DNA of 64,000 bases, from the NCBI RefSeq assembly GCF_024502345.1, contig NZ_JALDNN010000001.1; one strand, written 5' to 3'. A program made the position numbers and the translations under genes. Position 1 is the stretch's first letter. The number at the start of each line of letters is the position of its first letter. This DNA comes from Escherichia coli. GTDB lineage: Bacteria; Pseudomonadota; Gammaproteobacteria; Enterobacterales; Enterobacteriaceae. This document shows, piece by piece, positions 4,054 through 53,694 of the stretch. The notes under the pieces are model-generated. The model searched no databases and had not been told where the DNA came from. It saw only the letters and a list, made by a program, of their open reading frames with translations.

Positions 4054-5110
4054 GGCTTTGTTGAATAAATCGAACTTTTGCTGAGTTGAAGGATCAGATC
4101 ACGTATCTTCCCGACAACGCAGACCGTTCCGTGGCAAAGCAAAAGTTCAAAATCACCAACTGGCCCACCTACAATAAAGCCCTCATCAACCGTGGCTCCA
4201 TAACTTTCTGGCTGGATGATGAAGCTATTCAGGCCTGGTATGAGTCAGCAACACCTTCTTCACGAGGCAGACCTCAGCGCTATTCTGACCTTGCCATCAC
4301 GACTGTGCTGGTCATTAAACGCGTATTCAGGCTGACCCTGCGCGCTGCGCAGGGCTTTATTGATTCCATTTTTTCTCTGATGAACGTTCCGCTACGCTGC
4401 CCGGATTACAGCTGTGTCAGCAGGCGGGCAAAGTCGGTTAATGTCAGTTTCAAAACGCCCACCCGGGGTGAAATCGCACACCTGGTAATTGATTCCACCG
4501 GGCTGAAGGTCTTCGGTGAAGGCGAGTGGAAAGTCAAAAAGCATGGCCAGGAACGCCGCCGTATCTGGCGTAAGCTGCATCTCGCCGTTGACAGTAAAAC
4601 ACATGAAATCATCTGCGCTGACCTGTCGCTGAACAACGTTACGGACTCAGAGGCCTTCCCCGGGTTAATCCGGCAAACCCACCGGAAAATCAGGTCAGCC
4701 GCCGCCGATGGCGCTTACGATACCCGGCTATGTCACGATGAACTGCGGCGTAAGAAAATCAGCGCGCTTATCCCTCCCCGAAAAGGTGCGGGTTACTGGC
4801 CCGGTGAATATGCAGACCGTAACCGTGCAGTGGCTAATCAGCGAATGACCGGGAGTAATGCGCGGTGGAAATGGACAACAGATTACAACCGTCGCTCGAT
4901 AGCGGAAACGGCGATGTACCGGGTAAAACAGCTGTTCGGGGGTTCACTGACACTGCGTGACTACGATGGTCAGGTTGCAGAGGCTATGGCCCTGGTACGA
5001 GCGCTGAACAAAATGACGAAAGCAGGTATGCCTGAAAGCGTGCGTATTGCCTGAAAACACAACCCGCTACGGGGGAGACTTACCCGAAATCTGATTTATT
5101 CAACAAAGCC
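4054..5110 (+). mobile_element. IS903-family (IS5 superfamily) insertion sequence, 1057 bp, copy 1
   Basis: 18-bp terminal inverted repeats GGCTTTGTTGAATAAATC at both ends; 1057-bp length matches IS903; identical second copy at 52638..53694; no 9-bp target-site duplication. Confidence 0.85.
4131..5054 (+). CDS. IS903-family DDE transposase (307 aa from GTG; the ORF track extends to 4086)
   Basis: ORF fills the IS; IS5-family transposase-like sequence (…NWPTYNKALINRGSITFWLDDEAIQAWY…); GTG start inferred from the 307-aa IS903 transposase length. Confidence 0.8.
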   Translation: MAKQKFKITNWPTYNKALINRGSITFWLDDEAIQAWYESATPSSRGRPQRYSDLAITTVLVIKRVFRLTLRAAQGFIDSIFSLMNVPLRCPDYSCVSRRAKSVNVSFKTPTRGEIAHLVIDSTGLKVFGEGEWKVKKHGQERRRIWRKLHLAVDSKTHEIICADLSLNNVTDSEAFPGLIRQTHRKIRSAAADGAYDTRLCHDELRRKKISALIPPRKGAGYWPGEYADRNRAVANQRMTGSNARWKWTTDYNRRSIAETAMYRVKQLFGGSLTLRDYDGQVAEAMALVRALNKMTKAGMPESVRIA

Positions 5111-5483
5111 TATGCAAGGAGTATTTGATCATGTATAAGCAATAAAAACAGCTTCAGGAAATAAGGAATATCGCAATTTTTAAACATAAAATGCGAATCG
5201 TTCAATACAAAAAAGCAGCGTTGCGTAATCTTTCCCTGATTAAATACGCTACTGCCCTACCCTGATGACATGATCTGCACTGCACTATCATATAGACATG
5301 TTTCTCAACATGCGAAAAGATGTTTTATTTTCGGATTATATTAAATTGATATTTCATATAAAAAATGAAATTACATCAATCATATAAATAATTGTACCAA
5401 CTTTAATTACTATTCATAGCAAACAAATGGATATCCAGTTAACTACGCCAGTGATTCATTAACATTAACCTCCGGCATTATTG

Positions 5484-6101
5484 TTAAATAATGACATTCC
5501 TTTTTAATACTTCTTGTAATTTCGGTAACTGACATACAGCATCAGCAATCGCACTGATATTCGTGGCATTATCCTGAAACCATTCATGCCCAGGCCCCCA
5601 TGTACGCATAGTGCAAAGATAACAGTCCACCAGCGTTAGTTGCTCACCAAACGCATAAGGTTCAGCAGTGAGCTGCGAATTCAGCCAGATATAAAGCGAT
5701 TTTCGATATTCAATAACATTCTTCTTTAACTGTTCAGGTGCGTCAGGAGCCCAACGCTCAGGGTAATCGGCGAAAGTGAATGTTGGATAGATATTAGCAA
5801 CCAGCCAGACCAATAGCCGTTGAAACTGCTGGCGTTCGGTGCGCCCAACCGGTGGCGCAAGGTCCGGGCGACGATCGAGAACCATCAATGCAATCGCCGC
5901 TGTCTCCGTCATAATCTCGTCATTTTCCAATGCCAGTGTCGGAACCTGACACAACGGGTTCAGGGTTTTCAATAACTCGCGTGAAGCTCCCTCGTGGTCA
6001 AAACCACTGACATCAACGAACTGATAAGGAATATCAGCCAGTGTTAGCATCAGCTCACTGATTGTAGAGCCCCATCCGGGTACGCCATACACCTTAATCA
6101 T
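5484..6101 (-). CDS. yncG: Glutathione S-transferase homolog
   Basis: 205-aa ORF with GST-like N-terminus; position next to ansP. Confidence 0.8.
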   Translation of the reverse strand: MIKVYGVPGWGSTISELMLTLADIPYQFVDVSGFDHEGASRELLKTLNPLCQVPTLALENDEIMTETAAIALMVLDRRPDLAPPVGRTERQQFQRLLVWLVANIYPTFTFADYPERWAPDAPEQLKKNVIEYRKSLYIWLNSQLTAEPYAFGEQLTLVDCYLCTMRTWGPGHEWFQDNATNISAIADAVCQLPKLQEVLKRNVII

Positions 6102-51015: not shown

Positions 51016-51028
51016 TACGTTCCGGCGT

Positions 51029-52637
51029 TCAGTTATCACGACGCACCGCCATCGAAACCGTAAAAATGCCCCACTCATCAATCCGTTGAGTGCATTTATC
51101 AAATCCGGCATTACGCACGAGCGAATCCATCTCCCCTTGCGAACGCACGCGCATTACCCACGGTTTACCATCTTTATGACTGGTTAACACCCCGGCAATC
51201 AGCTCCAGTTGTGGGTGCCACGGCTGCCCGGTGTAGAGGAGAATGCCGCCCGGTTCGATGGCATTGGCAAGACCTGCGAGTGAGTTTTTTACCTGCTCAT
51301 TTTCGGGAAAAAGCTCATACAGTCCAGAGACAATTGCCAGCGTAGGCCGCGGAGTTAACGCGCTGAGTTCCTCCGGGTTAAACGCATCGCCCTGTTCAAA
51401 ACGCACCCGCCCAGACATTCCCCGTTGGGCAATCATCTCTTGCCCCTGTGCAACATTTAACTCGCTGTAATCACGTAACAAAATATCGCTTACGGCAGGC
51501 TCGTTTGCCAGCGCATCCAGTACATAGCGCCCATGCCCTGCGGCAATGTCAACCACGCGGACGGCTAAACCTTTGGCGTGGAGATCGGCAACGGCTTGTT
51601 TAATCTGTATTTGTAAATGGGTTTTGCGCTGGCGAATACCGCGCCAGCCAACACTGTTCAGGTAGATTTTGTCGATTAAGCGCCCGAATGCGTTACTACC
51701 TTGCGGTTGATTTTGATAGACATAATCCAGCGAACTGCCTGAATCAAAGCCGGTGCTCATTCCGAGATGCAGGCCCGCAGAGTGCGTCCCGAACAATTTC
51801 ATCGCCTTTCGCATAAAGCGATACGCTAAATCAACCGGCGATAATGGCACGGGTCCACCAGAAAGTAGCCGCCATCGATCCGCTGATGGTCCTGTGCAGT
51901 CTTCATGCTGATAGTCAAATTTTTGCGATTTGTTAGCATATAAACGACTAATAAAGCTTTGCATTTTTTCAAATGCCAGCGCCCTGTTCTCTTCACCCAA
52001 CGTGTCGTGATAAAAGCCTGGCAGCAGATGCAGCTCTTTCAGAGGGCTACGTAATCTCTGATAAAAATCAATCTGCGGTTGGCGATGCACCACATAGTCA
52101 TCGCCTGATATCAGAAGTTGCGTGGGGAGCGTAATCGCCGCCGCATCTCTAATAATACGTTCAGACGTTTTGTAGAGATCGAACAAGATATTAACGGCAA
52201 TCGCCCGTGTGATCAGCGGATCATTATTGAAACTCGCCACCCGTTGCCGATCGTGGGTCAAATAGCGTCCTTTCACATAGGAATTAATAAAAAACAGACC
52301 ACGCAGACGATGCCATAACGTCAGCGCAGGACGTGCCAGCGGCACATACAATTTAACCTTAAAGGCCGGAGAAGCCAGCACCAGCCCGCGAATTGCAGGT
52401 GCATAATCATGAATCCATGTGGCAACCAGCACTGCGCCGACGCTTTGCGCGATCACTACCACCTCTTCCAGTCCAACCTGGCTGTCGCTGGCAGCAAAAC
52501 GGACAAATTCATCGACATCCCGCACTGAACGCGCAAGAGATGGGCTATAACCACGCGGCCCCGAACTTTTTCCATGCCCTCGGGCATCCCAGGCATAAAA
52601 AGCAGTATCTGGCATCGCCAGTTCATCAACGAGATGT
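51029..52637 (-). pseudogene. ynbC: YnbC (alpha/beta hydrolase plus methyltransferase) lacking about 50 N-terminal codons, abutting the IS903-family element
   Basis: ORF 51029..52726 runs uninterrupted into the IS left end; its first 29 codons derive from IS sequence. Confidence 0.7.
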
Positions 52638-53694
52638 GGCTTTGTTGAATAAATCGAACTTTTGCTGAGTTGAAGGATCAGATCACGTATCTTCCCGACA
52701 ACGCAGACCGTTCCGTGGCAAAGCAAAAGTTCAAAATCACCAACTGGCCCACCTACAATAAAGCCCTCATCAACCGTGGCTCCATAACTTTCTGGCTGGA
52801 TGATGAAGCTATTCAGGCCTGGTATGAGTCAGCAACACCTTCTTCACGAGGCAGACCTCAGCGCTATTCTGACCTTGCCATCACGACTGTGCTGGTCATT
52901 AAACGCGTATTCAGGCTGACCCTGCGCGCTGCGCAGGGCTTTATTGATTCCATTTTTTCTCTGATGAACGTTCCGCTACGCTGCCCGGATTACAGCTGTG
53001 TCAGCAGGCGGGCAAAGTCGGTTAATGTCAGTTTCAAAACGCCCACCCGGGGTGAAATCGCACACCTGGTAATTGATTCCACCGGGCTGAAGGTCTTCGG
53101 TGAAGGCGAGTGGAAAGTCAAAAAGCATGGCCAGGAACGCCGCCGTATCTGGCGTAAGCTGCATCTCGCCGTTGACAGTAAAACACATGAAATCATCTGC
53201 GCTGACCTGTCGCTGAACAACGTTACGGACTCAGAGGCCTTCCCCGGGTTAATCCGGCAAACCCACCGGAAAATCAGGTCAGCCGCCGCCGATGGCGCTT
53301 ACGATACCCGGCTATGTCACGATGAACTGCGGCGTAAGAAAATCAGCGCGCTTATCCCTCCCCGAAAAGGTGCGGGTTACTGGCCCGGTGAATATGCAGA
53401 CCGTAACCGTGCAGTGGCTAATCAGCGAATGACCGGGAGTAATGCGCGGTGGAAATGGACAACAGATTACAACCGTCGCTCGATAGCGGAAACGGCGATG
53501 TACCGGGTAAAACAGCTGTTCGGGGGTTCACTGACACTGCGTGACTACGATGGTCAGGTTGCAGAGGCTATGGCCCTGGTACGAGCGCTGAACAAAATGA
53601 CGAAAGCAGGTATGCCTGAAAGCGTGCGTATTGCCTGAAAACACAACCCGCTACGGGGGAGACTTACCCGAAATCTGATTTATTCAACAAAGCC
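52638..53694 (+). mobile_element. IS903-family insertion sequence, 1057 bp, copy 2 (identical to copy 1, same orientation)
   Basis: Same 18-bp terminal inverted repeats; the encoded ORFs are identical to copy 1; no target-site duplication. Confidence 0.85.
52715..53638 (+). CDS. IS903-family DDE transposase
   Basis: Identical to the transposase ORF at 4131..5054. Confidence 0.8.
   Translation: MAKQKFKITNWPTYNKALINRGSITFWLDDEAIQAWYESATPSSRGRPQRYSDLAITTVLVIKRVFRLTLRAAQGFIDSIFSLMNVPLRCPDYSCVSRRAKSVNVSFKTPTRGEIAHLVIDSTGLKVFGEGEWKVKKHGQERRRIWRKLHLAVDSKTHEIICADLSLNNVTDSEAFPGLIRQTHRKIRSAAADGAYDTRLCHDELRRKKISALIPPRKGAGYWPGEYADRNRAVANQRMTGSNARWKWTTDYNRRSIAETAMYRVKQLFGGSLTLRDYDGQVAEAMALVRALNKMTKAGMPESVRIA

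Follow-up and report, generated by a model that had tools for sequence, protein, structure and literature searches.

Two identical IS903B copies, each at a deletion junction, flank a native segment of the Escherichia coli chromosome

We analysed a window of 64,000 nucleotides of Escherichia coli DNA (RefSeq assembly GCF_024502345.1, contig NZ_JALDNN010000001.1), in which two copies of an insertion sequence (IS), IS903B, stand on either side of a long run of native genes; throughout, the window means this whole stretch. Copy A occupies positions 4054-5110 and copy B positions 52638-53694, both on the + strand. Exact comparison of the two 1057-bp copies gave 0 mismatches, as a first-pass annotation of the sequence had stated, and their identity ends exactly at both termini of the element. 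The same annotation had the pair bracketing 48.6 kb of chromosome. This figure stands as the period of the repeat, the copies lying 48,584 bp apart from start to start, but not as the bracketed DNA, which amounts to 47,527 bp (5111-52637); the whole unit measures 49,641 bp. A repeat finder, with its reference copy limited to 300 nt, returned the IS pair as the sole long repeat in the window. The element ends in perfect 18-bp inverted repeats, its first 18 nt (GGCTTTGTTGAATAAATC) being the reverse complement of its last 18, and these lie at 4054-4071 (left) and 5093-5110 (right) in copy A and at 52638-52655 and 53677-53694 in copy B. The 18-mer GGCTTTGTTGAATAAATC is present exactly four times in the window, always at an IS end, against a chance expectation of 0.

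Each copy carries a transposase gene on the + strand, at 4131-5054 in copy A and 52715-53638 in copy B, encoding 307 amino acids from an in-frame GTG start; the longest open reading frame (ORF) of each copy begins at a TTG codon and encodes 322 amino acids (4086-5054 in copy A, + strand). The transposase ORF scored 357 bits against the NCBIfam model NF033579 for IS5-family transposases (cut-off 140), matched the Pfam domains DDE_Tnp_1_5 and DDE_Tnp_1, and has kept the Y-(2)-R-(3)-E-(6)-K (YREK) signature intact. At the DNA level the element is 100% identical to RefSeq copies labelled 'IS5-like element IS903B' in many E. coli genomes, and it was matched in 1993 of the 5426 complete RefSeq E. 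coli genomes, at up to 47 places per genome. Its nucleotide identity to the IS903B of Tn2680 on plasmid Rts1 is 97.2% (threshold at least 95%); the 30 differences comprise 28 substitutions and two single-base insertions or deletions (indels), and fall mostly at positions 506-677. A length of 1057 bp, a 9-bp target duplication and a place in the IS5 family, IS903 group, accord with the description in PMC12670165. Because its length, its inverted repeats, its DDE transposase and its identity to IS903B copies all agree, the window element is an isoform of a known IS, IS903B (IS5 family, IS903 group), which bears out the family assignment of the first-pass annotation. Both copies are full-length and apparently functional.

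Neither copy is flanked by a 9-bp target-site duplication. Exact comparison of the 9-bp flanks of copy A gave ACTCAAAAG on the left and TATGCAAGG on the right, and those of copy B are ACGAGATGT and GAGTGATGC, respectively; nor is there any cross-match between the flanks of the two copies. As controls, IS903-group copies from four other E. coli genomes (L001, L007, L008 and L010) and from Rts1, 93-99.5% identical to the window element, each showed a perfect 9-bp duplication, and IS copies adjoining rearranged DNA (L004 and L009) showed none. Since the control copies carry their duplications, their absence at the window copies, already noticed in the first-pass annotation, is meaningful: the missing duplications are explained by deletions and are not a property of the element.

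The bracketed DNA (5111-52637) is native chromosome, running from yncG-ansP through tehAB to hrpA-azoR-ynbD and the fragment ynbC'. It is collinear with the complete genome 2018-05-2CC at 98.4% identity with just 12 gap positions, and in 5365 of the 5426 complete genomes it adjoins both outer flanks in the usual order and orientation. The same interior, 99.97-100% identical, is present in relatives that have no IS at either site. Over 25 kb of the interval, identity to the complete RefSeq E. coli genomes never exceeds ~98.7%, and identity of 99.97-100% to the window is reached by several drafts and by metagenome contigs from the human gut. The four IS junctions are likewise absent from all 5,426 complete RefSeq genomes; the left junction of copy A was not found in the GTDB species representatives, and the right junctions of copies A and B were not found in the JGI metagenomes. 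The suggestion that the strain background is other than K-12 therefore holds. K-12 is established as lacking IS903, and no bracketed gene is known to be essential there.

At the left junction of copy A, yddE' (3564-4053, + strand) is cut after ~163 of its 297 codons, and the resulting fusion ORF runs to position 4064 within the IS. The deletion ends on the other side of the copy, in the right flank downstream of yncG (5111-5286). Relative to 2018-05-2CC, 11,235 bp are absent here. Closer relatives are more informative about what was lost: contig L028 (GCA_017173755.1) has 0 mismatches, and contig L027 two, over window positions 5111-15231 (10,121 bp), and both run unbroken and without an IS across the two copy A breakpoints, with 8,442 and 8,443 bp between them, respectively. 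Within this 8.4 kb lie the remainder of yddE, the genes nhoA, yddH and pptA, small ORFs and a degraded type VI secretion system (T6SS) islet (PAAR/VgrG/DUF2169/Tox-PAAR). The left junction has been sighted independently. The yddE'-IS fusion protein is on record for three to four contigs; one of these, an ENA metagenome contig (L006), matches the window over positions 1-4186, save for one cluster of single-nucleotide polymorphisms (SNPs), and stops 133 bp into the IS.

At copy B, the ynb genes are broken on both sides. The left junction cuts ynbC' (51029-52637, - strand), which lacks its first 149 nt, and the right junction cuts 'ynbA (53695-54038, - strand), which keeps ~114 N-terminal codons and has lost its 3' end. 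Compared with intact genomes, 1,321 bp are gone, comprising the first 149 nt of ynbC, the whole of ynbB and the 3' end of ynbA. A rare HrpA allele of the window was used to find contigs L011 and L012, and the paaF'-'paaX fusion protein encoded further right to find contigs bearing the right flank of copy B. Contig L011 (JBAOKM010000032.1 of assembly GCA_050022275.1) differs from the window at 1 of 17,750 bp, enters the IS exactly at the left junction of copy B and stops 76 bp into the IS left end. The Logan contig L012, with 1 mismatch in 7,811 bp, continues uninterrupted through the same position into intact ynbC and ynbB.

On the right of copy B, the relatives differ in how far the deletion has advanced. 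In GCA_050022275.1, contig L034 is 100% identical to the window from 53694 to 64000 (10.3 kb), and there the IS right end abuts ynbB, with 338 bp more of ynbA and ynbB kept than in the window, which makes the deletion 983 bp. In two metagenome contigs (L035 and L036), 191 bp more are kept before the IS right end, corresponding to a deletion of 1,130 bp. The three deletions of 983, 1130 and 1321 bp all extend from the IS right terminus into the same right-flank haplotype, and the window holds the most advanced of these nested endpoints. The common left junction was checked for the window and for GCA_050022275.1, and is assumed for L035 and L036. A protein look-up returned no record of the ynbA'-IS fusion protein of the window, because the relatives have different right junctions.

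Each copy thus caps a deletion (copy A, ~8.4 kb; copy B, 1321 bp), and neither is a plain insertion. The IS termini coincide exactly with the deletion endpoints, and the IS itself is kept intact. The earlier suspicion that the copies are products of IS-mediated rearrangement and not simple insertions is borne out by these junctions and by the nested series at copy B. We consider it likely that each of the two IS903B copies sits at an adjacent deletion mediated by its transposase, and that the pair arose incidentally from two separate events. In this mechanism an IS would first insert at, or to the left of, the present left junctions, and intramolecular transposition from the IS right end into nearby DNA would then remove the sequence between. 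The outcome would be an intact IS joined precisely to a new flank, with the target duplication destroyed. At copy B this step would have taken place two or more times in the lineage, probably three. Adjacent deletion is favoured at copy B because one IS end has a fixed junction and the other a ladder of endpoints, which is this mechanism's classical signature; for copy A an origin by adjacent deletion is, by analogy, most likely. We infer that the transposase and not RecA made the deletions, and likewise the direction of the copy A deletion. Adjacent deletions that start at an IS end and lengthen step by step are on record both for IS903 and, in the long-term evolution experiment (LTEE), for IS150 (PMC11708052, citing Weinert et al. 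1983; PMC12670165), and those of IS903 are reported as common (PMC11708052; PMC12670165).

Several observations weigh against this account. The relatives yielded no insertion-only intermediate, flanked by a 9-bp duplication, for either left junction, and the final structures are formally the same as the product of recombination between two directly repeated IS copies. The left junction of L035 and L036 was not seen on the same molecule as their right junction. Copy A has no nested deletion series and an independent sighting of its left junction only, and the window's own two right-hand junctions were seen nowhere else in RefSeq E. coli or the JGI metagenomes. In addition, the sequence background changes at copy B: identity to strain Z142-6 is 97.5-97.9% to the left of the copy and 99.8% to the right, with the change exactly at the IS, and over the 204 bp immediately to the right of the junction the IS-free L012 and the IS-bearing L034 differ at 4 positions. 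L012 and the relative represented by L034 are nevertheless identical across 7.8 kb to the left of it. From these sequences, a homologous-recombination event would also have ended at or near copy B, a simple reading being that an imported tract stopped at the heterology presented by the IS.

The closest competitor to adjacent deletion is RecA recombination between directly repeated IS903B copies, on one chromosome or between resident and incoming DNA, which would have made each junction, removing the DNA between the copies and leaving a hybrid copy with unrelated flanks. It would yield the same end product, with no duplication and the IS exactly at the deletion, and the raw material is plentiful given the abundance of IS903B in E. 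coli (see above); other strains have IS903-group insertions in ynbC, in ydbD and near pptA. The haplotype switch that coincides with copy B also fits recombination of this kind, but is more simply read as an imported tract ending at IS heterology. The nested endpoints are harder to accommodate: to place three right endpoints within a span of 338 bp, the background being otherwise identical, three additional insertions in the same orientation would be needed inside 1.3 kb, every one followed by a crossover, and no relative with a second nearby IS copy was seen. Recombination by RecA is possible for the first step at copy B; as the origin of every junction we consider it unlikely, though it deserves to be kept in view. 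A single step, in which an IS is captured into a double-strand break without staggered target cleavage and the deletion arises at the same time, is the published proposal for an element of the IS903 subgroup in E. coli C (PMC11708052). Such capture would leave no duplication and no intermediate, and indeed no intermediate is seen here even among relatives identical over 10 kb. This weighs little, however, as the lineage is very sparsely sampled, and one-step capture leaves the repeated extension from one fixed copy B junction unexplained, so that we hold it to be very unlikely. Two further readings seem doubtful to us: that IS903B copies or their heterology set the ends of inter-strain recombination tracts in this lineage, as the haplotype change exactly at copy B might suggest, or that the first step at each site was a one-step IS-plus-deletion event without staggered cleavage. 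If either were true, the lineage would offer a natural test of the part that IS elements play both in gene loss and in setting recombination boundaries, and several staged relatives are already in public data.

The two remaining explanations concern the pair as a whole. The first-pass annotation had called the arrangement composite-transposon-like, and the geometry does agree, with two identical IS copies bracketing a passenger segment. Movement as a unit does not: the outer flanks are ACTCAAAAG and GAGTGATGC, with no duplication around the whole unit, the interior is native and collinear in nearly all complete genomes, no junction was found elsewhere in the genome and metagenome collections named above, and IS-free relatives at either site have that same interior. 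On the flanks and the collinearity we reject a composite transposon, an inversion and a cross-matched duplication alike, and we give next to no credence to the idea that a composite transposon or imported island was moved or acquired as a 49.6-kb block. An assembly artefact, with the consensus of a single IS placed twice or a repeat mis-resolved, would account for the perfect identity of the copies, which is what consensus filling is expected to give, and for the lack of an independent sighting of the window's two right-hand junctions. Independent short-read assemblies nevertheless break at the left junctions of copy A (L006) and copy B (L011) with the IS left end attached, and L034-L036 break at IS right ends next to ynbA or ynbB; moreover, the four junctions could otherwise be paired in just one way, which would turn the interval into an excised circle unable to replicate. 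We therefore regard an artefact as highly improbable.

Adjacent deletion at both copies would explain the fragments of yddE, ynbA and ynbC and the loss of nhoA, yddH, pptA, ynbB and the T6SS islet, and would make this lineage a tidy natural case of stepwise IS903B adjacent deletion. Whatever its origin, the direct-repeat pair is, from its structure, a plausible substrate for RecA-mediated deletion or duplication of the 48.6-kb period, perfect 1057-bp direct repeats being a textbook substrate for unequal crossing-over. As the period could be lost or duplicated by recombination, coverage of the region and long-read assemblies merit checking. The interval contains toxin or toxin-antitoxin loci, namely ortT (~14,790-14,960), hicAB (~23,700-24,400) and hokB (~39,850-40,000), with coordinates transferred from L005; that these counter-select loss of the interval by recombination between the IS copies is speculation.

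A second nested series may exist at copy A. Contig JBAOKM010000032.1 of GCA_050022275.1, of which L011 covers just the first 17,750 bp, is 48,234 bp long, ~554 bp beyond the sum of the window's inter-IS segment and the IS overlaps. The right junction of copy A may be less advanced in this assembly, the alternative being an indel elsewhere in the contig. Searches with two guessed fusion proteins, with a neighbouring 48-residue ORF and through the cluster listing did not recover the far end of this contig.

Further observations were made around copy A. The sole difference between L006 and the window over their 4,186 bp is a set of 10 SNPs and one indel within 150 bp (3338-3486) at the 3' end of narV. 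The alternative allele is also found in L025, and the cluster resembles a patch left by gene conversion or recombination, with the narI paralogue as a possible partner. At window position 3551, 5' of the yddE start, the window has a 1-bp deletion relative to L025, L027 and L028 that it has in common with the IS-bearing L006. The right flank of copy A (5111-5286) is multi-copy sequence beside ISAs1/H-repeat elements, present at 19,781 places with a median of 3 per genome. In strain DLI.6n (L009, 3061-3085), an IS903-group element of 94% identity adjoins the same multi-copy sequence 11 bp further in, without a duplication, and ISAs1 elements are interrupted by IS903-group copies in two further genomes. 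Three apparent full-length junction matches (H107-H109) were rejected as other IS903-group copies beside ISAs1 elements at other loci.

Decay of the ynb genes is not confined to the IS junctions. A nonsense codon, W60* (TGG to TAG; 50860-50862, - strand), interrupts ynbD and is private to the window in comparison with L011 and L012, position 50861 being T in the window and C in both contigs. With ynbA and ynbC in fragments, ynbB lost and ynbD interrupted by W60*, the ynbABCD operon is dead. To the right of copy B, the phenylacetate/tyramine cluster has three deletions relative to Z142-6 that are free of any IS, at window positions 56464, 57195 and 57944, each with 2-5 nt of microhomology. The first (6,431 bp) leaves the in-frame paaF'-'paaX fusion ORF (55998-56555) and is common to seven contigs, the second (4,421 bp) runs from paaE' to paaZ', and the third (1,584 bp) from paaZ' to tynA'. 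Because the second is absent from L036 and L038, gene loss in this cluster is polymorphic in the lineage.

The arrangement is no new element, mechanism or system, but a known IS with known kinds of deletions, and its closest counterparts can be set beside it. Like the IS903B of Tn2680 on Rts1, where the element was first described, the window element is 1057 bp long, ends in 18-bp inverted repeats and encodes one DDE transposase; it departs from it by the 30 differences that make the window copies an isoform, and the window copies lack the 9-bp duplication. Tn903 is built of inverted IS903 copies around a passenger of ~1 kb. Together with Tn602 and TnaphA1-pIE545, it resembles the window pair in having two IS903-group copies around a passenger, whereas the window copies are direct, their passenger is 47.5 kb of native DNA, and there is neither an outer duplication nor a second location. 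The adjacent deletions of IS903 and IS150 (Weinert et al. 1983; the 'IS-del' series of the LTEE in PMC11708052) share with the window an exact start at an IS terminus, retention of the IS, the lack of a duplication and stepwise growth from a fixed junction; they differ in coming from a laboratory lineage and not, as here, from natural isolates and gut-metagenome contigs, for which the insertion-only ancestor is not in hand. In E. coli C, 'Ec-Del-IS' (PMC11708052) has an IS903-subgroup element centred in a 62-kb deletion without a duplication. It likewise places an IS of the same subgroup at a deletion junction with no intermediate observed, but it formed overnight under laboratory conditions and a single step was argued for it, whereas the nested endpoints at copy B of the window argue for several steps.

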